Origin: a virus
Lineage: Duplodnaviria > Heunggongvirae > Uroviricota > Caudoviricetes
IMG/VR virus record: IMGVR_UViG_2778261638_000005
Coordinates: 6,684 to 70,683 of that record
DNA: 64,000 bases
Direction: 5' to 3' (one strand)
This document shows positions 3,007 through 36,656 of the stretch, one piece after another (the stretch's first letter is position 1; each line of letters opens with the position of its first letter). Position numbers and translations under genes: made by a program. A model generated the notes under the pieces. It was not told the origin of the DNA. It ran no database searches and saw only the letters and a program-made list of their open reading frames with translations.

Positions 3007-3018
3007 CTTATTATCCCC

Positions 3019-3558
3019 TTATCGACCGGTTGGAGTGCCAACAGCAGCAGAAATCGGCGCAGCCTTCTGAGAGAATGGGCTCCACGTTCCTCCGCCCATC
3101 TGGTATGCACCGTATGCTTTTAGTGGTGCCGTTAACAAAGTGCTGGTCATCGATGATTTAGCAGCCGACTGAGCAGCAGCCCCCTGTGCCTGAGCATTCA
3201 TTCCCTGAACCTGATACCCATATGCCTCACGCTGAGCATTATTCACTGTCGTTAACGCATCAAGAGTGCCGAACTGAGCATTATCCGCAAAAACGTCAAG
3301 AGCTGTTCCGCTACTTAATTCCGCACCGGTAGCCCCCATAGTGGCCGCCGCAGTGCCTGAGCGTTGACGCATTTCACGACGACGCTGATCCGCTTCAATA
3401 TTCCCACGATTGATTGAATCCTGTGCCTGAGCTTCAGCAATTTCAGTATTCCGATCAGCTATGGCTGACTGGTATTTTGCCTGCTTGCTCTGGCTGTACA
3501 TTGACGCGGCTGTGGATGCCACTGTGACGGCAACCAAAGCGATGGCTGGGTTACACAT
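3019..3558 (-). CDS. putative internal virion protein
   Basis: 179 aa, N-terminal hydrophobic segment then Ala/Gln-rich region; structural-module position. Confidence 0.35.
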   Translation of the reverse strand: MCNPAIALVAVTVASTAASMYSQSKQAKYQSAIADRNTEIAEAQAQDSINRGNIEADQRRREMRQRSGTAAATMGATGAELSSGTALDVFADNAQFGTLDALTTVNNAQREAYGYQVQGMNAQAQGAAAQSAAKSSMTSTLLTAPLKAYGAYQMGGGTWSPFSQKAAPISAAVGTPTGR

Positions 3559-4022
3559 TATTTTCTCTCCATGTGAAATCTGTGGAAATTAAGACCAAGA
3601 GCACCATAAGGCGCGGCTTCTTCAAGCCTGAATCCAAGCCAGTGCAGCCATGCTTTGGCAACATGGTTTCGCTCGTCGACGTAGTTTTCCAGGCGCGGAT
3701 AAACTGCCAGCATCTGCTGCAATACAGGGCGGCAGTGGCGAAGAAATGTCTTCTGATATTTTTCAATACGGCTGGTTCCGACCAGCCAGGGCGTACCATT
3801 GCCACCAATCATTGACGCCGGAGATACACCAAACATGGTTACCAGTTCTCCGTTTGCAAATCCTGACCAGGCCATGGTCGCAGTGCGCAGACCAACACGC
3901 AGCGCATCTTCGGTAGTCATCAGCGATACAGCATACAGTTCGTCAATATCAGCCTGACGAACATCCGGCAAAATCATCTGAAGATGCTCTTCGGTTGCGG
4001 GAATAATTTGAACATCGATCAT
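3558..4022 (-). CDS. hypothetical protein, structural module
   Basis: 154 aa ORF, translationally coupled to neighbours. Confidence 0.35.
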   Translation of the reverse strand: MIDVQIIPATEEHLQMILPDVRQADIDELYAVSLMTTEDALRVGLRTATMAWSGFANGELVTMFGVSPASMIGGNGTPWLVGTSRIEKYQKTFLRHCRPVLQQMLAVYPRLENYVDERNHVAKAWLHWLGFRLEEAAPYGALGLNFHRFHMERK

Positions 4023-6493: not shown

Positions 6494-7098
6494 CAGGACA
6501 ACCTCGCAATGGTAAACTCATCAACCGGTGGCTGTGGTTCCTGTGATTCATTCTGGCTATGCGAGCCAGCACTAAGAATCACGCGATTGTACATATTGAG
6601 GGCAAACGTACCGAGGTCTGCATTCCCAGTCAGCGCCATGTTAATAGCTGCCGCAAGACGCCAGGCCAACGCCTCCATAAAAATGGCATCAAACATGTTC
6701 ACATCTGTAACGCGAGAGACATACTTGAGCCATGCCTGAGGCTGGTCTGTGTAGATCAACTTTCCTGTTCCGTTGGTGTCTGCACCAACTTCGTACTGAA
6801 CGCGCATTGCTGCTGTTGGATTGCGTACACCAGGAAGCATAATTTCAGTAATGCGCAGACAATCGGACGGGTACTGATACGCATATTCCCAGTCAGGCGG
6901 TGGATTGCTCGTATCTGCAAGCGACACGCGTTTGGTAGCAAAGTTCCAGTCAAAATCAGAAAGCACAGCATCACGGCAGGCCTCAAAGTGCAGCGAACAT
7001 TCCCCCGCTTCCTTGCTGGCTTCCGTCAGGCTGTTAATGCTGCGGCTATTGCCAATATTGGACAGCGCACGATTGCAGATCTCTACTACAGAGGCCAT
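6493..7098 (-). CDS. tail tubular protein A-like (adaptor) protein
   Basis: 201 aa; N-terminal LSNIG...SL pattern recalls T7 gp11; follows the capsid genes. Confidence 0.4.
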   Translation of the reverse strand: MASVVEICNRALSNIGNSRSINSLTEASKEAGECSLHFEACRDAVLSDFDWNFATKRVSLADTSNPPPDWEYAYQYPSDCLRITEIMLPGVRNPTAAMRVQYEVGADTNGTGKLIYTDQPQAWLKYVSRVTDVNMFDAIFMEALAWRLAAAINMALTGNADLGTFALNMYNRVILSAGSHSQNESQEPQPPVDEFTIARLS

Positions 7099-7427
7099 TA
7101 CTCACCCCCATTGCCGTACAGGGTTTCAGCCGCTGATTTTTCTACATCCCCGGAAACAGGAGCGATCGCCATATCAGTGATCTGCAGATCGGCGCTGCGA
7201 TTAACACCATCGTCAGTTTCTCTGGCAGACAGGCCTCGAATAACAGCCTTTGCAGTTATCATCACTTCTGTTCCGACGCCCTGAGGTTGCGCCTTCAGCT
7301 TATTCAATGTGTCGTTATTAAGAGTGATGCACAGCCCCCACGGGTATTCATCGCGAGTTCTGGTTTCTCCGCTCTCATCCTGGTAGCTGTCAGTGCCGGT
7401 TTTGAGGTTTACGAGTTCCATATACAC
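7098..7427 (-). CDS. hypothetical protein
   Basis: 109 aa ORF in structural module. Confidence 0.35.
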   Translation of the reverse strand: MYMELVNLKTGTDSYQDESGETRTRDEYPWGLCITLNNDTLNKLKAQPQGVGTEVMITAKAVIRGLSARETDDGVNRSADLQITDMAIAPVSGDVEKSAAETLYGNGGE

Positions 7428-7436
7428 TCCTGCAAT

Positions 7437-7455
7437 AAAGGGGCCGAAGCCCCTT
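7437..7455 (-). terminator. candidate stem-loop terminator after capsid-proximal genes
   Basis: GGGGC-N4-GCCCC hairpin followed by TTTATT on the minus strand, intergenic between two minus-strand genes. Confidence 0.3.
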
Positions 7456-7471
7456 ATCTGATTCGCGAGGC

Positions 7472-7816
7472 TTACACGCCCAGTTCTTTACGCTTATCTG
7501 CGATCTTCTCGCGGAGCGTTTCGGCTTTGGCGTTATGGTGTGGCTTCTCGTTAAAGAGCAATTCGTACTCTTCACGGAGCTTATCCAGTTCACCATCATC
7601 TGACACATCGTTGATGATTTTGGTGCTGGTTGCTGCCATAGACACCTTTCCTGCTACCTTTGCTTTTGCCTGTCTGGCTGCATCGTTAACAGGTTCCAGT
7701 GCGCTACCAGGCTCACCTTCGTATTCGATTTCTGCCCCCTCCGGCCACAGTGTGTTATGGATATGAGAGAGGCGCAGAACGCGGTATCTTGGTTTCTCAC
7801 CTGACATCGATATCAC
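7472..7816 (-). CDS. hypothetical protein
   Basis: 114 aa ORF, charged C-terminus. Confidence 0.35.
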   Translation of the reverse strand: MISMSGEKPRYRVLRLSHIHNTLWPEGAEIEYEGEPGSALEPVNDAARQAKAKVAGKVSMAATSTKIINDVSDDGELDKLREEYELLFNEKPHHNAKAETLREKIADKRKELGV

Positions 7817-7817
7817 C

Positions 7818-8255
7818 TTAACCAGTTACTTTTGAGCGGATCGGATACGGCGTATTGGCATCAACATCAAGACTGATACCAGCAGTGAATTCGCCAGCCG
7901 TTAGTGGGCCAGTTGCGACGGAGTAGTTAACACGCAGATATCGCTTAACACCGGCAGGCACCTTTGCAGAAACAATTCGTTTACCTGCTGTCAGGGCGGT
8001 CTTTGCCAGTGCGCCACTATCATAAATAGTGGTCCATGAGCTGTTATTCTCACTCGTCTGCAACTGGATGTTTACAGTTGCATCACCGCTTGCCGCGGCG
8101 GCTGTGTTAACCAGCGCCCAAAACTCAAGCGGGTAACCCACGCCGATATCACGATGTTTTCCGTCAATTGGACCGAGATCGATTACGTCAGTAGAAGCCG
8201 CGGTATTCGTAACCGCCTGAGCTTCGGAGAACATCAACAGTTTGTCGGTGATCAT
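7818..8255 (-). CDS. putative head decoration / accessory capsid protein
   Basis: 145 aa, Thr/Ala/Ser-rich beta-type composition, immediately downstream of major capsid gene. Confidence 0.3.
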   Translation of the reverse strand: MITDKLLMFSEAQAVTNTAASTDVIDLGPIDGKHRDIGVGYPLEFWALVNTAAAASGDATVNIQLQTSENNSSWTTIYDSGALAKTALTAGKRIVSAKVPAGVKRYLRVNYSVATGPLTAGEFTAGISLDVDANTPYPIRSKVTG

Positions 8256-8306
8256 CTTCTTTCTCCATTAGTGGGTCTGTTACGACCCACAGGTTAATAA
8301 CAGGCG

Positions 8307-9299
8307 TTACACCACGCGGGCTTCTGTTTCCAGAAGCGCATCAGTTTCACGGATTGGTACACCACGGAATGAAGTCCACCACTCGCCTTCTGTCTCTTTT
8401 ACGCTGATCGCCAGAGATGTTTTCTCCAGAGATTGCAGATCAAGAGCCTGGCCTACAGTGCGGTTCATGTAGAACACTGGGCGCCCCATGCCACGGTTTG
8501 GAATGCGATGCAGTGCTTTAACCATCAACTTCGCAATATTTGCGGCAGAGGAAGGTTCTGAAAGATTGCTGACATCGATGTTTGCAATGCGAACGACATA
8601 ACGCCAGTCACGCAGAGCAAGTCCGTTATCCCATTTGTAATGGGTACGGTAGCCTTCGTACTTGCCGCCATTAGCATCTTCCAGTGTCACTTGGCCTTTA
8701 TCTTCCATCTGAATGCCAGCCTTCTGCCCTTTCGGGAAGATGCCATGCACGGTGTTTTCGCCCCACACCACTAACCAGATTGAGGTGTTATCTGTACCCG
8801 TGCCACCAGCATCAATGATGTTCTGAGCATTACCCGCAGACAGGCTGGAATAGCGGGAGGACAGTCCCATAAACTGCTGAGGGTTAACGCTGGAATCACC
8901 ATAAAACAGCGTCTGCGCCATCTGCTGATTCATCGCTTCAATAAATGCTCGGTCTTCAGACAGGCGGAATTCGGCGGTATTGCCGTTCAGATCAGCCAGT
9001 GACTTATCGACCTCAGCATAGGTTTCCAGCATGCCAACGGAATCGGTGACCTGCACTGTGGTTGATTTGCTTGGCTGTACGCCATAGTTCAGCAAACGCC
9101 AGGTAGCTGAAGGTAAACCAGAACGAATGGTGGTTCGGTGTCCGGTAGGAAGGTTCCCTTCGACAAAAGGCATATCCTGAAGGATCGGGTTAGTTTGACC
9201 GAGAAGCTCGATAATCTTATCGACTTTCCCGTTTGGATCGACGCGCTTACCCCAGTCAGCCAGCGTTAGCGCAGTTAAGCCTTTAACAGCCATTGTCAT
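8307..9299 (-). CDS. major capsid protein
   Basis: 330 aa ORF between scaffold and tail genes; typical size and position. Confidence 0.65.
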   Translation of the reverse strand: MTMAVKGLTALTLADWGKRVDPNGKVDKIIELLGQTNPILQDMPFVEGNLPTGHRTTIRSGLPSATWRLLNYGVQPSKSTTVQVTDSVGMLETYAEVDKSLADLNGNTAEFRLSEDRAFIEAMNQQMAQTLFYGDSSVNPQQFMGLSSRYSSLSAGNAQNIIDAGGTGTDNTSIWLVVWGENTVHGIFPKGQKAGIQMEDKGQVTLEDANGGKYEGYRTHYKWDNGLALRDWRYVVRIANIDVSNLSEPSSAANIAKLMVKALHRIPNRGMGRPVFYMNRTVGQALDLQSLEKTSLAISVKETEGEWWTSFRGVPIRETDALLETEARVV

Positions 9300-9307
9300 T
9301 TCCTCTC

Positions 9308-10009
9308 TTATTTGCCATAGAGCACTTCGGCCGCACTACGCTGGCCTTCATTACCACCGGTGACCATGCCATCTTCAGACATCGCCTTTCCGATTTTCAC
9401 GAACGTTTTGACCAGATCAGGGTGATTACCCAGCCCGGTGGCGTTCAGATACTCTTTGAGTTCAGGTGTCCCGAACTGGTCAAGCGCACGCTGTGCGGCG
9501 CTAAGGTTAGAAATCAACTTGTCGCCACCGATTTCTTTGTCAGCTTTTACATCCGCAGCCCACTGCTCGGTTGTTTTCTGCCAGGCTTCTGCCTGGCGCT
9601 GCTGAACACCTGCCAGAATCTTCGGATAAGCATCAACCAGCTTTTGCGCTTGCTCGTTGGTCAGGTTAAGTTCTCGCGCCACCGGCTCGAATTCCTTCAA
9701 CGCTTCTGTATCCAGCTCTACGCCTTCGGCAGCCTGAAACTCGTACTTCTCAGGCGCACCCTCCGGTTTATCGCCGTCCTTTTTTTCACCCTGCTTATCG
9801 CTTTCAGGCTTTTTGTCATCAGCAGGTTTATCGCCATCAGCAACAGGTTGTGTCTTATCACCTTCCTGTTGTGATGGATCACCAACTGGAGCAGGGTTAT
9901 CACCTGCAGGCGCTGACGGTTCTGACGCAGCCGGAGCTGCTCCACCATCGACTGGTTGCTCATTGCAAAGACGGCGATACAGCAAACGCTCAAATAAATT
10001 CATGATCAC
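9308..10009 (-). CDS. scaffolding protein
   Basis: 233 aa, highly acidic low-complexity N-terminal half (D/E/K/P-rich), between portal and capsid. Confidence 0.55.
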   Translation of the reverse strand: MIMNLFERLLYRRLCNEQPVDGGAAPAASEPSAPAGDNPAPVGDPSQQEGDKTQPVADGDKPADDKKPESDKQGEKKDGDKPEGAPEKYEFQAAEGVELDTEALKEFEPVARELNLTNEQAQKLVDAYPKILAGVQQRQAEAWQKTTEQWAADVKADKEIGGDKLISNLSAAQRALDQFGTPELKEYLNATGLGNHPDLVKTFVKIGKAMSEDGMVTGGNEGQRSAAEVLYGK

Positions 10010-10302
10010 TCCTGTTCACTGGCCTCTTTGGCCATCTTCAAATACTGTTCAGGGCAATGCGCCATAACGCGCTGAAACAGTTCCAGCGCCAGATTGCGTT
10101 GCCCCTCATTAAATGCCATTGCCATAGCGTCCATCGGTGAGATAGCGGAAAACACACGGCCTTTCTCCAGCACCGACCAGACAACGCGACGCCCCTGTTC
10201 ACTGCTCATGACAAAGCGAATGTCATCAATTTCACGCTGCGCCATGTCACGTTGCTTACGGGCGTTTTCTTCTTTCAGTTGATCGTCTTCGTAATCTGTC
10301 AT
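10006..10302 (-). CDS. hypothetical head-module protein
   Basis: 98 aa ORF overlapping portal stop and scaffold start. Confidence 0.4.
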   Translation of the reverse strand: MTDYEDDQLKEENARKQRDMAQREIDDIRFVMSSEQGRRVVWSVLEKGRVFSAISPMDAMAMAFNEGQRNLALELFQRVMAHCPEQYLKMAKEASEQE

Positions 10303-11978
10303 TGTGATTGCCCACCCTGACCACTAACTGCATTCGCCATAGCTGACAAAACACTCGGATCCGAAGTTTTAGCTTCGCTTAGCGTCTTGGCACCCTGTGC
10401 CGCCGCCATCCCCATCGCCATCATTTGTTGCTGCTGTTGTTGCTGTGCCCGTTGCTGGCGAGTCTGCTCAACCTGTTCCTGCGGAACAATGACGGTTGGA
10501 GACACTCCGGACATATCAGCGAATGCATCGATCGCCTGATCAACGTTGAGTTTGTCGAGAGCTTCTGGTTTCGCTTGCGCAAGTTGACCAATGAAGTTGA
10601 CCGTAGACGCCAGACTGGACAGGCCGATAGACTTCTGCGCCTGAGCCATGACGGAAATGTATTCGACCTTCAGGGGCATACCTTCCATCGCGTCAGGCGG
10701 TGGCGGCAGCATTTTTTTACGCACCATCATCGAGAAAGCGCGGTCAATGAGAGGATTAAGACATTCGTCGTTCAGACGCTCCAGAACCGGCCCCAACATC
10801 AGAAGTTTTTCTTCTTTCATTTCGATCACCGCTTCAACAGGCATCGAGCGGGTATTGATGTTCTGCAACATCATGAACAGATCGACAAAGTAGGCGCTGT
10901 TAATGATTTGGCGAGTGTCCTGAATGTCTGCTACCAGATCTGCTGTACTGGGGTTAACCAGATAAGCAGGCCTGAAACCATCCTGACCAGTAATCTGATC
11001 GATATACGTGATGTCGCCAGGAAGAAGGGAGGCGCGCTGATTCTTGAGGGAAGTCGGAGCAACCATCGGCGGATTGGTGGCTTTATCAATCAACTGCGAC
11101 TTGCGCTTCTGGAGAAGCTGCAATGCCTTAACAGGTCCAAGCGCCAGCATACCCGGGCATGATGATCCATAAACATCTTCGCCGTTAACTTCCCAGCGCG
11201 GAGCCATAATTGGAAACTCATCGAATCCGGACTCACGCAACAACTTGTCGTTATCGCCACCAACCTCGTAATAAACCGATTTGAATGGCTTGTTCTTGCT
11301 ATCCAGCTTCGATGTATCGCGGTCAATGTTCGGGTAAACCGAATGCATCACTTCAATCCACTTCTCGTAGGTGCCGCTTTCCCACATGCTTTTTACGGAT
11401 TCGCTGACGTTATTTAGCCCGAACTCCTGAACAAGCTGACGAACAGTCATAGAGAACTTGCGAAAACAGGTGTCCACACTGCCACGAGGTGAGTTAGCCA
11501 GGTAGTAACTGCCTATCGGGAATGGCATTGTGCGAATGATGTCCTCGTCATCCTCCAGCACTGCCATTGCACCAGTGCTGTATGTGCCGAGGCTTCCGTA
11601 TAACTGCGGCAGAGACTGATAGAGATTCGACTTATTGAACATATCGTTCATGCGGTTCTGCACCGCCTCAAGCCACAACTTAACAGGGCCATAATCCATC
11701 ATTTCAGGATCTGGCGTAGCCAGGCGAAACCACGGACGCGCGGGGCTTGTGATGCCTGACATCATGCCGCTGGCGAGAGTGCGCGCCGCCATAGTCCCGG
11801 TCGAATCAATAATGCGTGTATTGCGTCGATCGTTACGGTTGACCTCAGAAGTCAGAAAGCGGGAACCACGCGGGTTGATGTAATCACTCAACTCGCGCCA
11901 GTGCGGCTCGAACGACTGACGCTCGCTTTCAAGTTGTGCGAACTGTTTGTTCAATCGCTCTTTAGTTGTTTCCGCCAT
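10299..11978 (-). CDS. portal (head-to-tail connector) protein, podovirus/T7-like
   Basis: 559 aa; Gln/Ala/Met-rich C-terminal tail (QQRAQQQQQQQMMAMGMAAAQG...) like the T7 gp8 C-terminus as recalled; sits between terminase and scaffold. Confidence 0.8.
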   Translation of the reverse strand: MAETTKERLNKQFAQLESERQSFEPHWRELSDYINPRGSRFLTSEVNRNDRRNTRIIDSTGTMAARTLASGMMSGITSPARPWFRLATPDPEMMDYGPVKLWLEAVQNRMNDMFNKSNLYQSLPQLYGSLGTYSTGAMAVLEDDEDIIRTMPFPIGSYYLANSPRGSVDTCFRKFSMTVRQLVQEFGLNNVSESVKSMWESGTYEKWIEVMHSVYPNIDRDTSKLDSKNKPFKSVYYEVGGDNDKLLRESGFDEFPIMAPRWEVNGEDVYGSSCPGMLALGPVKALQLLQKRKSQLIDKATNPPMVAPTSLKNQRASLLPGDITYIDQITGQDGFRPAYLVNPSTADLVADIQDTRQIINSAYFVDLFMMLQNINTRSMPVEAVIEMKEEKLLMLGPVLERLNDECLNPLIDRAFSMMVRKKMLPPPPDAMEGMPLKVEYISVMAQAQKSIGLSSLASTVNFIGQLAQAKPEALDKLNVDQAIDAFADMSGVSPTVIVPQEQVEQTRQQRAQQQQQQQMMAMGMAAAQGAKTLSEAKTSDPSVLSAMANAVSGQGGQSQ

Positions 11979-11992
11979 TTCAATGACTCCGG

Positions 11993-12199
11993 TTACTGAC
12001 CAAGTAGCGTTTTACCGCTGGTATTAGCGGTTGATGTGTCGCCCTGAGAACCGGTAAGCAGCGTAGAACTACGACCAGCAGCAGCGCGACGGCGACGAGT
12101 TTCTTCGTCGCGGGCATCAACAACGGCGGCATCCTGCTCCTGTGGTGCTGCCTGAACTTCTGGTGTTGCAGGCACTGATGGTGAGCTACCCATGCACAT
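11993..12199 (-). CDS. small Ser/Thr/Ala-rich protein (putative)
   Basis: 68 aa ORF with GGAG RBS 8 nt upstream, just upstream of portal. Confidence 0.25.
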   Translation of the reverse strand: MCMGSSPSVPATPEVQAAPQEQDAAVVDARDEETRRRRAAAGRSSTLLTGSQGDTSTANTSGKTLLGQ

Positions 12200-12626
12200 A
12201 TCAATGACTCCGTACGCAATTAAATTATTACCAATTTAACCACATATGATTTATTTATCGTAGTCGGTTGACATTTAACGCACGAATTATTACCTTTCAG
12301 GTAACCAAAAAGTTCATTCCGGTTACTAACCTGACTGGCTTGTCGTTAAATTGAACAGGTGGAGTGAGCTTTTATTTTGAGCAGTACGGCGTATGGCACA
12401 TGCGCCGATAGCGGCCTGGATACGTTTAAGGGGCACCCTCCCTTGCTCGGGCAAACGAACCAGGTAGCCGGAATGTGCAAGTCGAGCGGTTTTATTCCGC
12501 GCACGGGGATTCACCATCCCGGCGATTCGGTGTGACGCCTCGGAAGAGACGAGGGTACAACGATGAGAGCATTTATGGAGCCGCGACAAAGTGTGGTGCC
12601 TTAACAGGCTAAGTGCTCTCAGCGTT

Positions 12627-12703
12627 GTGGCATTAGCTCAGTCGGACAGAGCAACCGCCTTCTAAGCGGTTGGTCGCAGGTTCGAATCCTGCATGCCACG
12701 CCA
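12627..12703 (+). tRNA. tRNA-Arg (anticodon TCT)
   Basis: Cloverleaf read from sequence: acceptor GTGGCAT/ATGCCAC, D-arm GCTC-AGTCGGACA-GAGC, anticodon stem ACCGC/GCGGT with loop CTTCTAA, T-arm GCAGG-TTCGAAT-CCTGC, discriminator G, CCA. Confidence 0.85.
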
Positions 12704-12864
12704 GAATCACGCCTAAGGACCGTGATGCCAGAAGTTCCAGTGCTTGGCGGTGATGGTTTCCCTTGAAGGACTATCACCGCACTTTTTACAGCAGGACGCC
12801 ATTGCGATGACTTCATGCTGTAAACCCGTACAGCCACGGAAGGAAGAACTCATTGCTTCCAGTT

Positions 12865-12889
12865 CGCCCGGTTCGCCGGGCATTTTTTT
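12865..12889 (+). terminator. rho-independent terminator-like hairpin
   Basis: GCCCGG-ttcg-CCGGGC stem followed by ATTTTTTT, downstream of the tRNA. Confidence 0.5.
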
Positions 12890-12900
12890 AAGGTGAGATT

Positions 12901-13257
12901 ATGAACGACCAGCAAATCGAAAAAGAAATCGTTGAGAAAGGCAAAACGGCACCGCGAGTTACGCCTCAATATATCGAAAGCATCATTCTTGAAGAGCATT
13001 TCTTTACTGCTTATGACGGCATTCGTGCCGCCAATATGGGCGTTGGCGATTCATGGACAGCGCATAACTCTACAGACCTCCTGACTTTCTGCGTACTGGT
13101 GCTGAAGAATGGCTTCACCGTCACCGGAGAGAGTGCCTGTGCAAGCCAGGAAAACTTTGATGCAGAAATTGGTCGGAAGATTGCCCGGCAGAATGCTGTA
13201 AACAAAATCTGGATGCTCGAAGGTTACTTGCTGAAGCAGAAGCTAAGCGAGCAATAA
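12901..13257 (+). CDS. hypothetical protein (opposite-strand moron-like gene)
   Basis: 118 aa ORF with AAGGTGAG RBS; only plus-strand gene in an otherwise minus-strand morphogenesis block. Confidence 0.5.
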   Translation: MNDQQIEKEIVEKGKTAPRVTPQYIESIILEEHFFTAYDGIRAANMGVGDSWTAHNSTDLLTFCVLVLKNGFTVTGESACASQENFDAEIGRKIARQNAVNKIWMLEGYLLKQKLSEQ

Positions 13258-13347
13258 CACCGTGACATGTCACAAACAGCCAGCCGATGAGCTGGCTTTG
13301 TTTTATCCTCACCAGAGGATATCAGCAGCATTATCCCCTCCAACGGA

Positions 13348-14823
13348 TTAAGCATAGGGATCGTAATCTGTGATGGCCTTGCCTTGCTGGTTCTGCTGCC
13401 CGGGAATTCGCAGACGCTTCGACACAGGGAACGCAAACGTCAGCAGTAGCGCATCGCCTTTACCCGGCGAACGCCCAAGCCGCTCCTTGATATCTTCCTT
13501 CGGTTCGATAACGATTTTACCGTCCACTCGAACTTTGTACTCAGCCGCCGACAGGTCGTCCGCTGTTTCCTGGTCATCAAGCATGCCACCCAGCCTCAGC
13601 CATGTCTTGCATGAGTTGAACATCTCCCCACGCTTGTTGAGCATCTGCGGGTCAGTAGACGCGCCACCGAACGGAACAAGTTGCCATGTACGACCCCAGC
13701 CGTCACCGATTGACTTCAGACCAGTTCCGTAACCGAAGTCGATGAACACTGCGTCAGCCTGGTACTGGTCTTCAAAGTCAGCGATACGCTTCGCCATAAT
13801 CAGATCGTCAGTGGTCTTGTTGCCAGTCCACAGCACCTTACTGTGCAGCCCCTGCCGCAGGTATATCACAGCGTCATCAACGCCGGAGTATGCCGGGTCA
13901 ACGCCGATTATCACCGGAGCATGTGCAACCTGCGCAGCGGTTACCACCCGTTTCATTGCCTCGTCAGTAAGGCCAGTAGGGATAAACTGCAATTCAGATG
14001 CATCCGGGAATATGCCGCGCACACGGATTTTAACGAAGTCGCTGTCTTCCCCGTAGTCATCAACCCATTTCTGCAACTGCTGTTTGTTAGTGCCTTCCAC
14101 CGTCCGGCTGTCAATCTGCGCACACTTCCAGCGGTGTTTGTACTTGCGGAAACATTCACGGAAACGCCCGGTGTTACGCGTCGGGTTTCCGAACGCCACC
14201 CAGATAATCTCAGTGTCTTCGTCCGTTAGCGCACCCTCGGCAACTTCCCACACCAGATCCGCAATGTTCGACGCTTCATCGAATACCACGATGATGCGTT
14301 TGCGCTCGTTGTGTAGTCCGGCGAATGCCTCAGTGTTGTGCTCAGACCAGGGGATTGCGTCAGCTCGCCACCGCTTGTCGTGCCCAGGGTCATTGCTGTA
14401 CATCGCGGTAGCGGTACAGGTAAACCAGTCTTTCGTGATAGCAAGGTTCGACCACTTGATAATTTCCGGCCAAGTCTTCGTTCGTAGCTGGTTGTCGGTG
14501 TTGGCGGTCACCACGACCTTACAATCCTCGCAAGTGGACATGCCCCAGTTGATCAGCATTGAGATGAATGCGGATTTACCAATACCGTGACCCGAAGCAC
14601 GTGCCAGCATAAGCGGCTGATAGCGCGTCTCTGGATTCTGCAGGTGATCACGTATCTCTCGGAACGCATCAGCCTGCCACTGACGTGGACCGGTGGCATG
14701 TGCTAATTCAGTCCCCTCTTCCCCCCACGGGAACGCATAGAGGGCATAGCCAAGCGGATCGTGAGTGAACCCTGCAATATCCTCGATCAACTGCTCTTCA
14801 GGAGATAACGCTGTATCTGTCAC
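13348..14823 (-). CDS. terminase large subunit
   Basis: 491 aa; Walker A-like SGHGIGKS and Walker B-like IIVVFDEAS; nuclease-type C-terminal half. Confidence 0.85.
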   Translation of the reverse strand: MTDTALSPEEQLIEDIAGFTHDPLGYALYAFPWGEEGTELAHATGPRQWQADAFREIRDHLQNPETRYQPLMLARASGHGIGKSAFISMLINWGMSTCEDCKVVVTANTDNQLRTKTWPEIIKWSNLAITKDWFTCTATAMYSNDPGHDKRWRADAIPWSEHNTEAFAGLHNERKRIIVVFDEASNIADLVWEVAEGALTDEDTEIIWVAFGNPTRNTGRFRECFRKYKHRWKCAQIDSRTVEGTNKQQLQKWVDDYGEDSDFVKIRVRGIFPDASELQFIPTGLTDEAMKRVVTAAQVAHAPVIIGVDPAYSGVDDAVIYLRQGLHSKVLWTGNKTTDDLIMAKRIADFEDQYQADAVFIDFGYGTGLKSIGDGWGRTWQLVPFGGASTDPQMLNKRGEMFNSCKTWLRLGGMLDDQETADDLSAAEYKVRVDGKIVIEPKEDIKERLGRSPGKGDALLLTFAFPVSKRLRIPGQQNQQGKAITDYDPYA

Positions 14824-15494
14824 TGATTACCATCCTGACGTTCTTTGAGTCGCTTCCTGGCTGCTGCTATGCGATCAGCAATTGTCACATTCACATTAAC
14901 ATCCAGACGTTCTTTGAACGCGTTGACATCAACATGCTTACCAATCAGCTCAAGGTTCTTCACCTTGTCAGGCCATTTAATTTTTTTGAGGATTGTCTCT
15001 ATCGAATCCTCGTTCATGTTCATGATGGTCGATGACAGATCAAAGCCACTAAGCGTAGTGCGCCAAATTTTCGGCCACTCACGGATTGGTTTAAGGCTCC
15101 CATCGTCGTTGAGGATGTCGATCACGTCCATCTGGTCGATCTCCACCAGGCGCATGAGAACGTAATCAGCACTGACGCGCATTCGTTTGTTGCGCTCCTC
15201 CATCAACTCGGCAATCCGTTTTTGAATGCGTTCATCGCGCATCATGACACTGGCTTTAACTGCCGCTGTATTTGGGGAGAATCCTGCGTTAATCGCTGCC
15301 TGAGTCTGGTTTTCAGGCGTTTTGATGTATGACTGGCAATAAGCCTCCTGCATTGCTGTTAGTGGCTTAAATTGCGTTGATTTGCGTTTATAGGTTTTAG
15401 GTTCAGCAGGCATCATAACCACCGTGGTAATAGTTACCGTTGTGGTAATAGTATCATGCAAAATAAAGCCGCCATAGTTGGCGGCAGTATTCAA
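14820..15494 (-). CDS. terminase small subunit
   Basis: TPENQTQAAINAGFS HTH motif typical of terminase small subunits; probable true start at MMPAEP (15416); coupled to large subunit. Confidence 0.7.
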   Translation of the reverse strand: MNTAANYGGFILHDTITTTVTITTVVMMPAEPKTYKRKSTQFKPLTAMQEAYCQSYIKTPENQTQAAINAGFSPNTAAVKASVMMRDERIQKRIAELMEERNKRMRVSADYVLMRLVEIDQMDVIDILNDDGSLKPIREWPKIWRTTLSGFDLSSTIMNMNEDSIETILKKIKWPDKVKNLELIGKHVDVNAFKERLDVNVNVTIADRIAAARKRLKERQDGNQ

Positions 15495-15534
15495 AACCCA
15501 TCAAATTCATCATGCATAATCTACTCGTGACATG

Positions 15535-15873
15535 TCACACTATTAATTTCGTTTCATGCCAGCCTTTAGTCACCCAGCATTGCGAGTCACCATTACACGG
15601 GCATGAATTAACTGGAACTCTCTCGCCGCACTTACCGCAACGTTTTCTGCTGATCGATTTTATACGCCCGCGCACGCGTGCATCATCCTGGCGGATCAGT
15701 AACGCTATATACTCACCAAATTCGTAAGGCGCACGCCCGGGGCGACGCGTGGCACAGTTACGCTCCAGCATTTCAATTTCCTGAGCATCAAGCACAATTT
15801 CCAGCTTACGCACACCAGATGCAGCTTGTCTGGCTCTCTGAGCGGCTTTGCGCTCTGCTGATGATTTAGCCAT
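15535..15873 (-). CDS. hypothetical protein, Cys-rich C-terminus
   Basis: 112 aa, CGKCG...CPC motif. Confidence 0.4.
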   Translation of the reverse strand: MAKSSAERKAAQRARQAASGVRKLEIVLDAQEIEMLERNCATRRPGRAPYEFGEYIALLIRQDDARVRGRIKSISRKRCGKCGERVPVNSCPCNGDSQCWVTKGWHETKLIV

Positions 15874-16288
15874 TCTGATTTTCCTGCATCATGAGAAATA
15901 CAATCATGGCGGCGCGGAGTGGGTTGTTGTCTATGGTAATAAATTCACAAAATCTATCCGCCTCCCACCAATATTCATTCTTCATTCCAGGATTATTTCT
16001 TTCGTATGCACATATGCTGATCTGATGTTTTGCGATTACAGGCCATGAGGCGCTCGGATCATTGCAGTAGTCAGGTAAAGGGTTTAATGGCTCAAAAGTT
16101 GTATCAGCATTTCCGTAATACCATTTGTTGGTGTTATTCCCTGATGTTTCCGGTTTACATGCCCAAAGGCCTTTAAAAATTATGTCTCCTACCATTCTGT
16201 TAATTTCAAAATCACTTAACTGTGAATAGTCCATTACTTCACCTCCTGCGGCGGTTCTGGTAGCGGCATCCAATTGATTACATCGCAT
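15866..16288 (-). CDS. hypothetical prophage protein
   Basis: 140 aa ORF, probable start at internal MDYSQL. Confidence 0.4.
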   Translation of the reverse strand: MRCNQLDAATRTAAGGEVMDYSQLSDFEINRMVGDIIFKGLWACKPETSGNNTNKWYYGNADTTFEPLNPLPDYCNDPSASWPVIAKHQISICAYERNNPGMKNEYWWEADRFCEFITIDNNPLRAAMIVFLMMQENQNG

Positions 16289-16617
16289 TCAGGGATGCTG
16301 ATATCATCACCAAGCCACCCTTGACCTTCAGACCAGCATTGCACGTAATACCCGTATTCTGTGTTCACTACGCACCACTGCGCGTCGTCCGGCATTTGCT
16401 CACTACAGCTTATCCAATCATCCGGAGTTACCGGAGAGTTGCCCGATAGCTGGTTCAACTTGTAAGTTTGGCTTACAGGTTCTGCTTCCAGCGATGCCAG
16501 TGCAATTCGTGCCAGCTCTTCCGCTTCTTCTGCTGGCAGTACAACGTTGCTACCAGGTCCGTATGTTTCGCGCCACTGCTTGATTGTCAGCAGTCGCTCT
16601 TTGGTTATAGTGGTCAT
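16234..16617 (-). CDS. DUF551-like prophage protein
   Basis: 127 aa, acidic Trp/Cys-containing C-terminal half typical of DUF551 proteins in enterobacterial prophages. Confidence 0.45.
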   Translation of the reverse strand: MTTITKERLLTIKQWRETYGPGSNVVLPAEEAEELARIALASLEAEPVSQTYKLNQLSGNSPVTPDDWISCSEQMPDDAQWCVVNTEYGYYVQCWSEGQGWLGDDISIPECDVINWMPLPEPPQEVK

Positions 16618-16874
16618 TTGTTAATCCTCAAAACTTTATGCCCGGGCGCAAAAGCACGCGTTTTGTCTTTGCTTATTCGCCAGCCATCCTTGCGCGCCTC
16701 TTTTGCACAGCCAGCCCATGACGTACCTATATACTCACCGAAGTCTGGCGACTTATATTTGCCATCTGTACATTGGAGGCAATCACAATAGAGATGCATG
16801 GTGTAACTTGCAGCGATAGCCATATCACTCTCCTTTAGTGCGCAAGTGGTTTTTCCAGCGGTTTTGCGCCGCAC
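16614..16874 (-). CDS. hypothetical protein
   Basis: 86 aa ORF, Cys-rich. Confidence 0.3.
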   Translation of the reverse strand: MRRKTAGKTTCALKESDMAIAASYTMHLYCDCLQCTDGKYKSPDFGEYIGTSWAGCAKEARKDGWRISKDKTRAFAPGHKVLRINK

Positions 16875-17182
16875 TGGGCTTTTTGCAACAGCTGTGACCC
16901 ATCACCCCGCAACACCCCGTCAACCTCACTCGTCTGTTACTAATCCTCAACCATCGCCAGACCCCAACACCGTTTCTGCTAGCTAACAGAATTTTTGCCT
17001 TACGGTTTTTCATCGTTTTGTTCTCCTGCGTTTCCTTGCTGCTCGTTTCGCCGCTGCAACGCCTGTACGGCGTTTCGGTGCCGGAATGATGCTGTCAGCC
17101 ATCAGGACATACGGCTTTGCAATTAGCGCAGAAGCCCAAAAACGAGTCGGGTACGGTAACAAGCCGATACATGCCACACGCA

Positions 17183-17854
17183 TTACTCACCTCCTTTGAT
17201 GCGAATGCCTGCGGCGCGTGGCACATTAACTTCCACGATGCGCACTGTTGGTTTGTACATCTCAATCGCTGTCAGCCAGTCAGCTCCTGTCATGCGCTTT
17301 TCCGCATCGCCATTAGTCCACTGAACCGGTACACCAATAGCCTTCATCGCAATTTCTATTTCCCCGGCAATGGCGCTTTTCCCGCAACCAGTAAAACCAG
17401 ATACAACGACAAGAACTTCGCCTTTGGCTGGTTTTATTTCCCGAGCTTCCAGTTCTGCTATGCGCTTACTTCCATCCGCGATTACTCCCTCGTAATACTC
17501 ACGCTGCTCGTTGAGTTTTGATTTTGCTTCCTCAAGCTCAACACGCAGTTCCCTTACCGTTAGCGCAATTTCCTCGTTCTCCTGGTCACGGCTTTTGATG
17601 TATTGCTGGTTTCTTTCCCGTTCATCCAGCAGCGCCTGCACTACTTCAGGGTTGAAATCTGCGATATAACGAGCGTTGTTCTCTGCGTTTTTCTGCCCAT
17701 CAAAGCCGGGCCATTTGATAACGTCTTCACATCGTTTATCACCAGGTGTATGCACCGCATATGTACCAGTACCAGACGAAATAAATGCGACCCATTCACC
17801 CTGTGTTGCCAGTTGCGCCGCTTCACGCAGTGCCTGATAGTCAATCTTGCTCAC
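17183..17854 (-). CDS. Ead/Ea22-like protein
   Basis: 223 aa; N-terminal MSKIDYQALREAAQLATQGEW and central coiled coil typical of the Ea22-like family. Confidence 0.5.
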   Translation of the reverse strand: MSKIDYQALREAAQLATQGEWVAFISSGTGTYAVHTPGDKRCEDVIKWPGFDGQKNAENNARYIADFNPEVVQALLDERERNQQYIKSRDQENEEIALTVRELRVELEEAKSKLNEQREYYEGVIADGSKRIAELEAREIKPAKGEVLVVVSGFTGCGKSAIAGEIEIAMKAIGVPVQWTNGDAEKRMTGADWLTAIEMYKPTVRIVEVNVPRAAGIRIKGGE

Positions 17855-18471
17855 TGGTTGCCTCCTTTGCGAAGCTGGGCGGCGATATCTTCGAGAACGC
17901 CATCAGAGAATGAACGGTCAAAATCGCCTTCCGGCGCATTAGCCATAAACTCAGTAGAGGTAAGAATCATCCGGGCAATATCAGCGGCGTTCTTCGCAGT
18001 ATCATCAATAAAACCAGCTTCCCAGGCAGCCAGCATTCTGTTCGCCACAAAGTAAGCGCCCTCCTTGCGTGCTTCAGTCTTCACTTCAGCCAAGAAAGCG
18101 TCGGTGGCTGGGGTTTTTATTTCGTTAAGTGCATCACTGAATCCACCTCTCTCCATACCTAGCTCTGCTTCGTAATCGGCATCGAATGCAGCGTCTTTGC
18201 AGAACTTCTTCAGCTTTGCATTCTCCGCTGCCAGCGCCGAAAACTTCTCGTGTGCCAACTTAACAGCTGCATCAGCCTGCTTAATTGACTCAATCGCTCT
18301 CTGGTGGTCTTCGGCCAGCGCATTAGCACGCACCAGTTGCACTTCCAATTGCGTTGCCAAATTGCTGATCAGCTTTGCCACACTACGCATATCAACGGCC
18401 CCACATTCTGCTTTCAGTTCCGAAGCCATCTCATGCCCGGCGGAAACTAACCCTTTGATATTACTTTCCAT
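17851..18471 (-). CDS. hypothetical protein
   Basis: 206 aa helical protein, overlaps neighbour by 4 nt. Confidence 0.4.
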   Translation of the reverse strand: MESNIKGLVSAGHEMASELKAECGAVDMRSVAKLISNLATQLEVQLVRANALAEDHQRAIESIKQADAAVKLAHEKFSALAAENAKLKKFCKDAAFDADYEAELGMERGGFSDALNEIKTPATDAFLAEVKTEARKEGAYFVANRMLAAWEAGFIDDTAKNAADIARMILTSTEFMANAPEGDFDRSFSDGVLEDIAAQLRKGGNQ

Positions 18472-18532
18472 CTTTACCCTCGCTTATCCACATAACTTAT
18501 TGATTACATTGATAACTAAAAAGATCGTCGAT

Positions 18533-18877
18533 TCAGAACTCTTCGATATTCCAGCCGCCACCTGCTTTCTTTGGCTTAACCGTTACCCCGATGATTCGGA
18601 ACGGATACTGATCTGCGGCGACTTTGGTTTTCACCCTGGCGTCGTCGGTCCAGAAACCTTTCACTTCATGCAGTTCCATCTCACCAGTGGCGAGCATCAC
18701 AGCGAAATCTGGCGTATAGAACGTGTTGTCAGCCAGCCGCAGCTTGATACCCTCGAACCGATACCAGGCGATTTCCCCTGCACGTTTACGCTGCTCAAGG
18801 TGCTGGCAATACGCAGATTCTGTTTTGTTCATCTGGCCTGTTTTGAGTCGACCAAGAGCCTGTATCTGCTTTCTCAT
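18533..18877 (-). CDS. putative PD-(D/E)XK-type nuclease family protein
   Basis: 114 aa; TPDF...GEMELHEVKG resembles a PD..ExK motif; first gene downstream of P in the resident phage. Confidence 0.4.
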   Translation of the reverse strand: MRKQIQALGRLKTGQMNKTESAYCQHLEQRKRAGEIAWYRFEGIKLRLADNTFYTPDFAVMLATGEMELHEVKGFWTDDARVKTKVAADQYPFRIIGVTVKPKKAGGGWNIEEF

Positions 18878-18880
18878 GAT

Positions 18881-18957
18881 TTACCCCTGAGGTAATTAAA
18901 AACCACATAAGACACGAAATCAATAGATTTTAGAATATTTCATTACCCAGAAGGTAA
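18881..18957. promoter_or_regulatory. two TTACC-N5-GGTAA palindromic operator-like sites
   Basis: Perfect copies at 18881-18895 and 18943-18957, same motif as at 58187-58201 and 58899-58913 in the immunity region. Confidence 0.45.
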
Positions 18958-18994
18958 TTATTGAGGCGTAAAAAAATGCGCTATCGCGCTGGTA

Positions 18995-19091
18995 TTACTT
19001 GATAAATCCTGCCGCCTTTCCCCGCCTGTATTCCTCCATCAGCCACTGCGCCGGTGTTATTCCCCCCAGGGTGGCGGCGTTAGGCATGCAC
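18995..19091 (-). pseudogene. displaced 3' end of replication gene P (separated from its 5' part by the Mu-like insertion)
   Basis: Joining host sequence at 56001-56004 to 19091 downwards with one GCAC copy gives an in-frame continuation of P for about 30 codons ending at TAA 18995-18997. Confidence 0.35.
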
Positions 19092-19100
19092 TAAAGCGCG

Positions 19101-19175
19101 CAAAATCATTTGATACCGTTTTGAATTTTTTTTGATACCACCCAAAACGGCACAACGAAAAATTATTTGATACTA
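19101..19175. repeat. right-end transposase-binding repeats (three TTTGATAC cores, attR-like)
   Basis: Cores at 19109-19116, 19131-19138, 19166-19173; 22-bp spacing of the first two as for Mu R1-R2. Confidence 0.6.
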
Positions 19176-19910
19176 ATCGGGAGTGCTTTTAGGGTATGGC
19201 TGAACCCTGAATAGCTTAGTATTTAGCCGCTTCCTTGCTCGCTTGTTCAGGAACCTGATGTAGCGATACTGATTAAATTTGTGCACCACGGCACGCTCTT
19301 TATTAGCCCGTAAATACACGCCTCGTTGTCCACCGCGCTTAATTGCGTTCATCGTTATCTCGTGATACCACTCACCATCCAGCTCGTAGAACGTGCTTTC
19401 ATGGCTGCCAATAAAATCAAAATTCGACGCCTGATACACAACGCCTGCGCGTCCGCAGCGTTCGTCAGCAAAGGACTGAACCCACTCCACTGACGGATAC
19501 AGTAATCTGATAACTTTCAGCGCGTAGCTGATGGCCCGTGATTCAGAGTTGCGGGGCATGTCGTCGTGTAGCCACATGCGATTCAACTCCATATAGCCCC
19601 GGTTATCCGTTTCAAGCACGACACGACGACCTGAGTTGGGGTTAAGGGCATATCCCCACTGGAGAACGCCAACCAGATCGCGTCCGCTGAATACTCCCAG
19701 GTGGAGGTAAGAGTTATTCACAAAACGGCGGGAATAGTGCTTTGTCTGAATAATTGTGCGGGCCAGCCAGCAGGATATGGTTTCAACGCGCAGCTCCTTT
19801 GAACCATAGCCAACAATCTGGCCTTCATACTCAATAACGCACGGTTTCGTCAGAATGCGTGATTTTTTCTCTTTTCCCACAATGTTTCTCCGTGGGATGC
19901 TCGCAGGCAT
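19173..19910 (-). CDS. mom: Mom DNA-modification protein
   Basis: Last gene before the right end, overlapping com as in Mu; start codon uncertain (ATG at 19910 or GTG near 19880). Confidence 0.7.
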
Positions 19911-20019
19911 TCAGCATTATGATGTGACGTTTGCAACGCGGACACCTGATTTCAATGTGATCAAAGGAATCCGCCTTAAATAACAGTTTGTTGCAGTTTT
20001 TACAGCGAATTGATTTCAT
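19831..20019 (-). CDS. com: Com zinc-finger translational activator of mom
   Basis: 62 aa with Cys at 6, 9, 26 and 29; directly upstream of and overlapping mom. Confidence 0.8.
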
Positions 20020-20130: not shown

Positions 20131-20695
20131 CGTTTTCTATATGCGCTCGTTTCGCGGGGTGTTTTTTATACAGAGTTGACAGGGCCACATCGTAGATCAA
20201 TGCAACCTGCTTGCGGGGGATTCCTTGTGCTAATAAACGCCCGGCCTGCTCCCATTCCGCTTTGGTTAGTTTAGGTGGTCGCCCACCAATACGGCCTTTA
20301 TTTCTGGCGGCAGCAAGTCCAGCCATCGTTCGCTCGATGATTAGTTCTCGTTCCATTTCAGCCAGGGCACCCATAACGTGGAAGAAAAAACGCCCCATTG
20401 GAGAAGATGTGTCTATGCTGTCGGTCAGACTGCGAAAATTAATCCCTCGCTCCCGTAGTTCCCCGACGAGAGAAATCAGATGTTTCATGCTTCGCCCGAG
20501 GCGATCCAGTTTCCAGACAACCAGCGTGTCACCTTTTTGAAGGCGCTTTAAAGCGCGTTTTAATCCCGGTCGGTCTGTCTTTGTCCCGCTTAATTTATCT
20601 TCAAATATTTGTTCACATCCTGCACAAACAAGAGCGTTTCGTTGCAGGTCTGTATTCTGGTCATTTGTTGATACCCTTACATAGCCAATCAGCAC
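20114..20695 (-). CDS. gin: Gin-type serine DNA invertase
   Basis: 193 aa; N-terminal YVRVSTNDQ catalytic serine motif of resolvase/invertase family; C-terminal HTH; adjacent to invertible segment. Confidence 0.9.
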   Translation of the reverse strand: MLIGYVRVSTNDQNTDLQRNALVCAGCEQIFEDKLSGTKTDRPGLKRALKRLQKGDTLVVWKLDRLGRSMKHLISLVGELRERGINFRSLTDSIDTSSPMGRFFFHVMGALAEMERELIIERTMAGLAAARNKGRIGGRPPKLTKAEWEQAGRLLAQGIPRKQVALIYDVALSTLYKKHPAKRAHIENDDRIN

Positions 20696-20749
20696 TCTGG
20701 ATCTCCCGTTTAAAAGCGCAAATCATGCCATGCAGGCCGGAAACAACCA

Positions 20750-20777
20750 TTATCTAAAACCTCGGTTTACAGGAAAC
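20750..20777. repeat. gix recombination site (gin-proximal copy)
   Basis: TTATCTAAAACCTCGGTTTACAGGAAAC; inverted copy at 23813-23840 with 2 mismatches; matches the Mu gix sequence as recalled. Confidence 0.8.
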
Positions 20778-20931
20778 GGTAAACAGGGCTGGTAACGCCG
20801 TTCAAAAGACAGGCGATACCTTATCCGGTGGGCTTACTTTTGAAAACGACTCAATCCTTGCCTGGATTCGAAATACTGACTGGGCAAAGATTGGATTTAA
20901 AAATGATGCCGACAGCGACACAGATTCATAC

Positions 20932-35738: not shown

Positions 35739-36656
35739 TTACAGGTAGTCAGCGACAACCAGTTGCAGCTTGCCCTTCATCTCGTTGGAGACGGTGGTAT
35801 TGCCATCCGCGAACAGTTCACGGTTAAGCAGTTGCTCTGCGGCTTTTTCCAGCCCGACCGGTACAACGATATGCGTCGGCTTCAGGCCCAGCTTCTTACC
35901 GCCATCACCTTCAAAAGATCGCATCAGTTGCCAGCCCTTCCAGAGGTTATCCAGCGTCAGATCGCCTTTTACCGCGACAGCCATCTGCCAGAAGCCGTAA
36001 CCGGCAGCACGGCGGGCGCTGGCACCAAACAGGAACTCGTTATCCATAAAAACGTGGTCGTCATCGATACGGGTACGTGCGACCAGCTCCGGTTTGCGGC
36101 GCTCCTGGAAAATCAGCGGTTTGACTGCGCGGGAGCAGTCCAGCAGATAGAACGGCAGACCGCTGAAGCTGTCCTGCTCAACGATGTTGGAGGTATTAAC
36201 CGCGCTGCCCGTGCCGTCCACATTCGGATATACCGGATGCTCCTTGTCGAAGAAGTTCTGACCGTCATAGCACGGCTGGGTAAAGCCATCTTTCAGAAGT
36301 TTAAAAATCAGCTCATCCGGCTGAACTGCCGCAGAACGGCCCATCTCCTGAAAAATCGGCGCATAAATACCCAAATTGTCATCGTCAAAGTCATCGCGGG
36401 AAATACCCACGGTGCCTTCAAACGTTTTATTGGCGATGGAGTAGCCATGCGCTTCCATTTGCTGAATGGTTCGCTTACCCACCCATTCTTTCAGGGTCGG
36501 GAATTTACCCAGCCAGCCATAGGTATTACTGCGGGTGGAAGAGTTCACCACCATTGCAATTTTGCTGTACTGCGACGGGGCGTCTTCAAGACCGCCCTGA
36601 AAATCCTTACGCCAGGAGGTCATCAGGGCTTTAATGGATGCCGGGGTGACAATCAT
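35739..36656 (-). CDS. Mu-type major head subunit (T)
   Basis: 305 aa after protease/scaffold gene; matches Mu T size. Confidence 0.8.
   Translation of the reverse strand: MIVTPASIKALMTSWRKDFQGGLEDAPSQYSKIAMVVNSSTRSNTYGWLGKFPTLKEWVGKRTIQQMEAHGYSIANKTFEGTVGISRDDFDDDNLGIYAPIFQEMGRSAAVQPDELIFKLLKDGFTQPCYDGQNFFDKEHPVYPNVDGTGSAVNTSNIVEQDSFSGLPFYLLDCSRAVKPLIFQERRKPELVARTRIDDDHVFMDNEFLFGASARRAAGYGFWQMAVAVKGDLTLDNLWKGWQLMRSFEGDGGKKLGLKPTHIVVPVGLEKAAEQLLNRELFADGNTTVSNEMKGKLQLVVADYL

Follow-up and report, generated by a model that had tools for sequence, protein, structure and literature searches.

Copies of one palindrome, TTACC-N5-GGTAA, stand on both sides of a Mu-like element in the 64-kb window analyzed here (the whole 64,000-nucleotide stretch), some near 18.9 kb and some near 58 kb. 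The question that this locus raises is which protein reads the palindrome, and what the same word does at transcription units that now lie so far apart. An earlier, sequence-only reading of this DNA had counted four copies and suggested that one repressor controls promoters in both the immunity region and a post-replication operon.

The resident prophage and its repeated palindrome

Prophage DNA flanking the insert shows 97–98% identity to phiV10, an Escherichia phage, and to phages related to it, and the resident prophage is, as judged from sequence, a phiV10/epsilon15-like member of Uetakevirus, the genus of which Salmonella phage epsilon15 is the type member. The immunity region of this prophage is present in 545 of 5426 complete E. 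coli genomes (~10%), and a sister prophage without the insertion adjoins guaA in strain WP3-S18-ESBL-09. The Mu insertion and the reconstructed P gene described in the earlier reading are borne out by the homology to phiV10, which stops at 19091 and restarts at 56001, inside a lambda-P-like replication gene and ~96 bp before its stop codon. Between these breakpoints lies a Mu-like prophage (19092-56000) that resembles Mu, D108 and Yersinia Mu-like phages (vB_YpM_5), carries a Mom gene (19173-19910) beside its 19.1-kb end, and is not part of the operator system. The insertion truncates P and cuts the early-right operon, and the resident prophage is therefore probably replication-deficient.

Several features of the insert itself are of note. 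Its left-end 6 kb are closer to Yersinia phages vB_YpM_5/6 than to Mu or D108. The two junctions (19080-19095 and 55995-56010) have in common only a 4-bp duplication, GCAC; when 5 bp are read, TGCAC on the left faces AGCAC on the right. Mu insertion normally makes a clean 5-bp duplication. With boundaries drawn instead at the customary TG...CA termini (19087-56003), the duplication disappears altogether. An inverted repeat of the ATTTGATAC type, such as AAATCATTTGATAC, occurs three times at each end of the element (19092-19175 and 55820-56000). These repeats do not resemble the canonical Mu L/R end sites and presumably serve as binding sites for the transposase of a divergent relative of Mu.

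A pattern search of the window found seven perfect copies of TTACC-N5-GGTAA, starting at 12290, 15434, 18881, 18943, 58187, 58899 and 58961. The four copies counted before (18881-18895, 18943-18957, 58187-58201 and 58899-58913) are perfect matches with exact coordinates, and the count was incomplete, because it missed 12290, 15434 and 58961 as well as the degenerate sites, which number at least four. One-mismatch copies add two sites, at 15416 and 58139, and two sites with two mismatches (58170 and 57802) are at places where relatives carry better copies. Only 0.02 perfect copies are expected by chance per 64 kb, and 0 of 100 dinucleotide-preserving shuffles of the window gave seven; a chance origin of the motif is thus excluded. 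Among 5-Nk-5 palindromes, TTACC-N5-GGTAA ranks first in the window by frequency, and its extended consensus is A-TTACC-W-rich N5-GGTAA-T.

Every copy of the motif falls within the resident prophage (1-19091 and 56001-64000; 27 kb). A motif search beyond the prophage, which the earlier reading had proposed as a check, found no copy at up to one mismatch in the 36.9-kb Mu-like insert. In a 115-kb chromosome sample from a closely related E. coli strain, the search found no perfect copy and three scattered one-mismatch copies. With no perfect site in these 152 kb of non-Uetakevirus DNA, the possibility that the motif is common genome-wide is excluded on this sample. Intergenic placement was found for 8 of the 10 sites in the sister prophage, where non-coding DNA makes up only 7.3% of the sequence (P = 3e-8). 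The same sequence is the top palindromic word in the relatives, with 8 perfect copies in phiV10, 11 in epsilon15, 10 in Salmonella phage SPC32H, 9 in Enterobacter phage Tyrion and 9 in Klebsiella phage BUCT711. Motif, positions and spacings recur in relatives from E. coli, Salmonella, Enterobacter and Klebsiella, in each case together with a Rep homologue that has an almost unchanging recognition helix.

The immunity region and two promoter cassettes

The 194-aa repressor gene, rep (58257-58841, plus strand), encodes an N-terminal helix-turn-helix (HTH) DNA-binding domain and an HTH-like C-terminal domain. Divergent from it lies the gene for a 76-aa Cro-like HTH protein (57872-58102, minus strand), a homologue of phiV10 gp41 and the first gene of the early-right (replication) operon. 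Three operators, with spacings of 31 and 17 bp, occupy the interval between the rep start (58257) and the cro-like start (58102). The perfect one, TTACCTGTTGGGTAA (58187-58201), lies 56 nt upstream of the rep ATG, and a site at this offset (-70 from rep) is present in all 62 loci picked by Rep homology alone. A degenerate site with two mismatches, TTACCTATGGGGTGC (58170-58184), lies 17 bp from it, and the same 17-bp tandem is found in epsilon15 (33341/33358), SPC32H and BUCT711. The third site, TCACCCATAAGGTAA (58139-58153), has one mismatch and overlaps the promoter of the cro-like gene, which reads leftward, at the -35 hexamer and the spacer; the promoter scan called this promoter as TTGTTA-17-TATTAT (58156 to 58128, minus strand). 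The offset of the site, -118 from rep, is occupied in 62/62 Rep-selected loci. Farther along the early-right operon, a degenerate operator with two mismatches (57802-57816; one mismatch in phiV10, at 33112) stands between the terminator that follows the cro-like gene (57850-57831) and the next gene (start 57784), and a site at this offset (-455 from rep) is seen in 41 of the 62 Rep-selected loci.

On the other side of rep, a terminator-like hairpin with a T run (58862-58881, plus strand), annotated as a terminator in phiV10, directly precedes a sigma-70-type promoter that is bracketed by two operators. This cassette A (58899-58975, plus strand) has the order operator-N19-(-35)-N17-(-10)-operator, with a distal operator at 58899-58913, a -35 element TTGACA at 58933-58938, a -10 element AATTAT at 58956-58961 and a proximal operator at 58961-58975 that begins on the last base of the -10. 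The promoter, TTGACA-17-AATTAT, scored 10/12 in the consensus promoter scan, and it is the early-left promoter, ahead of a 50-aa gene (58995) and the recE/recT operon. Of the two copies that the sequence-only reading had put in the repressor/cro-like region, the one at 58187 does lie in the rep/cro-like intergenic interval, but the one at 58899 lies past the rep terminator, as the early-left distal operator paired with 58961.

The copies near 18.9 kb form a cassette B (18881-18957, minus strand) which, as read from the sequence, has the same geometry: a distal operator at 18957-18943, a -35 element TTGATT at 18923-18918, a -10-like element TTTAAT at 18900-18895 and a proximal operator at 18895-18881. 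It follows the P stop, as had been proposed, and also a terminator annotated in phiV10. The proximal operator holds the Shine-Dalgarno sequence AGGGG and ends 3 nt ahead of the ATG at 18877. The earlier reading had both copies overlapping this ribosome-binding region, which is true of 18881; the copy at 18943 is its partner, 62 bp upstream and beyond the promoter. The consensus promoter scan made no call in cassette B because its -10, TTTAAT, has no A at position 2, and we infer a promoter there because the elements stand at exactly the same positions as in cassette A. The first gene behind it (18533-18877, minus strand) encodes a 114-aa protein that matches Pfam DUF1064 and PHROG 190 'Holliday junction resolvase' (E 6e-43), in agreement with its earlier description as nuclease-like.

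In both cassettes the operator centers are 62 bp apart, or 5.9 helical turns, and the paired operators would therefore be presented on the same face of the DNA. The geometry is the same in phiV10, Tyrion, epsilon15, SPC32H and BUCT711, where every one of the ten cassettes has a 62–63-bp spacing. What differs among these phages is the gene that follows cassette B: it encodes the DUF1064 nuclease in the window, phiV10, SPC32H and BUCT711, and a RuvC-type Holliday junction resolvase in epsilon15 (35987-36451) and Tyrion (37345-37809). By sequence comparison, one gene has been exchanged for a non-orthologous one behind a regulatory module that stayed fixed, the cassette and even its distance to the ATG being kept. 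Each operator pair forms a complete 77-bp cassette of its own, and the 37-kb split made by the Mu-like element is therefore irrelevant to repression. Thus, the resident prophage retains intact, separately repressible transcription units despite its broken P.

Each palindrome can fold as a hairpin of 5–8 bp, and the cassette B proximal site includes the Shine-Dalgarno sequence, which might suggest that the palindromes act in RNA, as terminators, RNase III sites or translational occluders, and not as DNA-binding sites. Such a role is very improbable. The folds are of low stability (-3.5 to -5.9 kcal/mol) and lack a T run; the distal operators, being upstream of the predicted promoters, would be left out of the transcripts that start there; variants with one mismatch disrupt the stem with no compensatory change; and the half-site letters are invariant across genera beyond what pairing involves. 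The RNA hairpin or terminator reading was rejected for these reasons, and we treat the palindromes as DNA-binding sites.

Late-gene sites, earlier annotation and the link to Rep

Sites also stand at the starts of late genes. An operator pair with an 18-bp spacing, one perfect (15448-15434) and one with a single mismatch (15430-15416), lies on the minus strand in the gap that separates a terminator (15485-15468) from the probable ATG (15416/15413) of the small-terminase gene, terS, and the second member includes a GGTGG Shine-Dalgarno sequence. This pair is also present in phiV10, Tyrion and epsilon15, where 12-27 is an annotated repressor site. A single perfect operator (12290-12304) lies ~90 nt upstream of a 68-aa gene (ATG 12199) that heads the portal/head operon, and it is syntenic with an epsilon15 repressor site (2931-2947) and with phiV10 3252. 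The prophage also carries a tRNA-Arg gene (anticodon TCT; 12627-12703, plus strand), situated where the terminase genes give way to the head operon and likewise annotated in the sister prophage and SPC32H.

The terS open reading frame (14820-15494, minus strand) has been called in two ways. In phiV10 and in the PGAP annotation of the sister prophage, the start is upstream, at a position that is TTG at 15494 in the window; this start places two operators and the terminator inside the coding sequence and makes the call ~26 codons longer than those in epsilon15, SPC32H and Tyrion. A start of the latter type would be the ATG at 15416/15413, giving 198 aa with the operators just upstream. The longer call in the phiV10 and PGAP annotation is probably wrong. 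The remaining 2 of the 10 sister-prophage sites fall in the first codons of this TTG-start call and so probably lie in its over-extended part. At the other end of the prophage, the last part of the window (62750-64000) stops exactly at the integrase start codon and so leaves just outside it an operator-like site with one mismatch that is conserved ahead of int (ATTACCYTAAAGGTATA in phiV10, epsilon15, SPC32H and Tyrion); in epsilon15 the stretch with this site is annotated as an integrase-binding site.

Prior annotation bears directly on these positions. The epsilon15 RefSeq record (NC_004775) labels ATTACC-N5-GGTAAT as a protein_bind feature, 'repressor/lysogeny', at seven places: before terS, before gp3, in the gap between gp19 and the tail-fibre gene, at three positions near the early-left promoter and before gp43. 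These annotated sites correspond to 15434, 12290, cassette A and cassette B of the window. The label may be a prediction and not a footprint; Kropinski et al. 2007 (Virology 369:234) may be where the operators were defined. Perfect epsilon15 sites that are not annotated in RefSeq lie at 24704, in the rep/gp39 intergenic interval (33341 and 33358) and at the proximal partner of cassette B (35969), and it is through these omissions that the paired, bracketing layout is missing from the epsilon15 record. The phiV10 record annotates terminators and no operator features.

It could be argued that the late-gene sites (12290 and 15416/15434) are targets of another phage regulator and merely resemble the Rep operator. 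A candidate late activator is available, since a 112-aa 'transcriptional regulator' (15535-15873; PHROG 536) is encoded just upstream of terS, and after it come the terminator and the terS sites with no gene in between. Promoter scans found no sigma-70 consensus promoter at the 12290 or 15434 sites, as is typical of activator-dependent late promoters. However, the half-sites at the late genes are identical to those of the immunity region, the epsilon15 record calls the same late-gene positions repressor sites, and the terS sites abut the start codon, which is not a place for an activator. One palindrome for two unrelated regulators would also be unparsimonious, and we consider this explanation quite unlikely for the late-gene sites, which we regard as operators of Rep.

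The repressor itself belongs to a characterized family. In a phmmer search against the PDB, the 194-aa protein matched the SPC32H repressor (5D50_A, E 1e-41), with its residues 1-190 paired with 2-197 of that protein. By tblastn, identity is 99.5% to both phiV10 gp40 and the ZX5 repressor, and ~42% and 41% to epsilon15 gp38 and SPC32H Rep, respectively. The Pfam matches of the 194-aa protein are HTH families only, with no S24 peptidase domain found in the Pfam search, which rules out a self-cleaving CI repressor of the lambda type. The operator is likewise not a LexA box, since the motif is TTACC-N5-GGTAA and not CTGT-N8-ACAG.

The association between palindrome and Rep holds well beyond the reference phages. 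An IMG/VR scan with the cassette pattern returned at least 119 loci, mostly contigs of ~40 kb, with at least 539 perfect sites in 1.04 Mb. Operator spacings among the IMG/VR matches listed were quantized at 17/18, 30, 48, 62/63 and 76 bp; the 62/63-bp class in this motif-selected set is biased by the search pattern, and the other classes are unbiased. For the 62-bp spacing, the unbiased samples are the five reference genomes and the Rep-selected loci. Among the matches listed, 37 motif-selected loci extend 4.5 kb or more to either side of the cassette, and all 37 encode a Rep homologue. Conversely, when Rep homology was the sole criterion, 62/62 full-length loci had at least four perfect sites at fixed offsets from rep, and the central N5 varied freely while the half-sites were constant. 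Across Rep alleles that are 41–64% identical overall, the recognition-helix residues N36, L37, R40 and W41 are invariant, which on sequence matches the invariant half-site. A Rep-based search of viral contigs for divergent repressors with a different operator returned, in the best 80 loci, only 99%-identical alleles, and the recognition helix is the same in every one of the diverse Reps that the motif scan brought up.

The window thus combines a full-length homologue of SPC32H Rep with the epsilon15 palindrome at syntenic positions, and these comparisons make it highly probable that TTACC-N5-GGTAA, which stands at almost all promoters of this phage, is the operator of Rep, the 194-aa repressor of this phiV10/epsilon15-type Uetakevirus prophage. 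The proposal that one repressor governs both the immunity region and the post-replication promoter is supported by the syntenic repressor annotation in epsilon15, the homology to SPC32H Rep and the presence of Rep in every one of the 37 motif-selected loci.

The most serious competitor to this assignment is the Cro-like protein. Lambda Cro shares operators with CI, and the palindromes here could be bound mainly or additionally by the 76-aa protein, with the dispersed sites serving a turn-down of expression in the lytic phase, in place of or besides repression in the lysogen. The protein matches PHROG 35 'transcriptional repressor' (E 5.6e-13), its HTH can be aligned to the N-terminal domain of Rep (a weak similarity, 27% over 41 aa, pairwise E 0.001), and its gene is divergent from rep across the three-site region. 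The motif co-occurred with the Cro-like protein in 88 loci and with Rep in 93, among the matches listed, and co-occurrence cannot separate the two because both are nearly equally consistent. On the other hand, the putative recognition helix of the Cro-like protein (TSHYIQTH) differs from that of Rep (QANLVNRW), the epsilon15 annotation gives the sites to the repressor, and Rep alone, when overexpressed, silences lytic genes (PMC9782041). We regard a main or additional role for the Cro-like protein as rather unlikely, and its binding would be compatible with binding by Rep.

Rep as a proposed dispersed silencer and its known counterparts

Work on related phages suggests how Rep might act at these sites. 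According to the description in PMC9638917, SPC32H Rep binds palindromic sites as a tetramer that is dissociated by the antirepressor Ant. The DNA-binding pairs are described as coming from N-terminal domains of different dimers, and Ant is described as binding the C-terminal domain of Rep and splitting the tetramer (PMC9638917, PMC9986798). Overexpression of the ZX5 repressor lowered holin and endolysin transcripts by >99.9% (PMC9782041). The ant region is outside the window, and the induction module is seen in phiV10-type phages: phiV10 gp24 is 88% identical to SPC32H Ant and has a perfect CTGT-N8-ACAG LexA box upstream. A comparison of the ant loci (phiV10 20543-20800, SPC32H 19676-19936) shows this 88% identity in Ant, whereas the cognate repressors are only 41% identical. 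A conserved Ant with divergent Reps is unexpected if Ant–Rep contacts set specificity.

By homology to SPC32H, Rep would be a non-cleavable repressor that sits as a tetramer on palindromic operators through pairs of N-terminal HTH domains and lets go once its C-terminal domain is bound by Ant, a small protein under LexA control. In the lysogen, Rep would directly silence every lytic transcription unit. At the cassettes, a proximal operator over the end of the -10 and the transcription start would probably occlude RNA polymerase, and in cassette B Rep at this site would also cover the site of ribosome binding. From the same helix face, 62 bp away, the distal operator could supply cooperative binding and possibly accommodate the second DNA-binding pair of the same tetramer. 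The operators at late-gene starts would block residual or read-through expression. With each cassette autonomous, the unit downstream of the Mu-like insertion in P would still be repressed.

We tentatively extend this model in two directions. It is possible, though we would not favor it outright, that one Rep tetramer clamps both operators of a cassette, holding a ~47-bp loop around the -35 and -10, and that Rep is a genus-wide silencer like P1 C1 and not a lambda-like switch. The clamp is suggested by the fixed 62-bp pairs and by the report that N-terminal domains pair in 'trans' within the Rep tetramer. The near-invariant half-site and recognition helix across four host genera, together with the operators at late-gene starts, suggest the global silencer. 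The one-tetramer clamp may already be covered by Kim et al. 2016. The strictly conserved 62-bp bracketing geometry offers a clean, testable case for a tetrameric repressor on short-range operator pairs.

The feature is already known in kind, as the operator set of a known family of temperate-phage repressors, and having re-found it from raw sequence changes little for the field. One gain is an operator map for phiV10-type genome records. Neither the epsilon15 nor the phiV10 record notes that operators bracket promoters at a strict spacing or that the half-site is constant throughout the genus, although both points may be covered in the primary papers. The primary epsilon15 and SPC32H papers aside, a search of the full-text literature found nothing relevant on phage TTACC/GGTAA or Uetakevirus operators, and the ZX5 paper mentions no operator sequence (PMC9782041).

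The closest counterparts are epsilon15 and SPC32H. Epsilon15, from the same genus, has the same palindrome at the same syntenic positions, but its repressor (gp38) is only ~42% identical to the protein encoded in the window, and it has a third cassette A site, 76 bp downstream, that is absent from the window. The Rep/Ant switch of Salmonella phage SPC32H is reportedly the subject of Kim & Ryu 2013 (J Virol 87:11775) and Kim et al. 2016 (PNAS 113:E2480; PDB 5D50, 5D4Z). SPC32H has a full-length homologous two-domain repressor without an autocleavage domain, and the same operator word is found at the same places in its genome; it differs in that its Rep is only 41% identical and in that the ant locus of the resident prophage would fall outside the window.

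Comparison with lambda CI/Cro gives a more mixed picture. As in lambda, the three-site region lies where the repressor and cro-like genes diverge, the other early promoter has an operator set of its own, and the palindromes overlap -35 and -10 elements. Unlike lambda CI, however, the repressor in the window has no S24 peptidase/RecA-cleavage domain, and induction would, by analogy, proceed through an antirepressor. Operators in the window are also found where late genes begin and at a third early unit, and their pairs bracket promoters at a fixed 62 bp, whereas lambda has adjacent 24-bp arrays. The half-site appears constant across Uetakevirus, whereas lambdoid immunity types vary.

Phage P1 offers the other point of reference. 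The operators of P1 C1 are dispersed over the genome before separate transcription units, and an antirepressor inactivates C1. The likeness to the system described here lies in a single repressor, many scattered operators and inactivation by an antirepressor. In contrast to the symmetric palindrome of the window, P1 operators are asymmetric and 17 bp long, C1 is unrelated to Rep, and P1 is a plasmid prophage.
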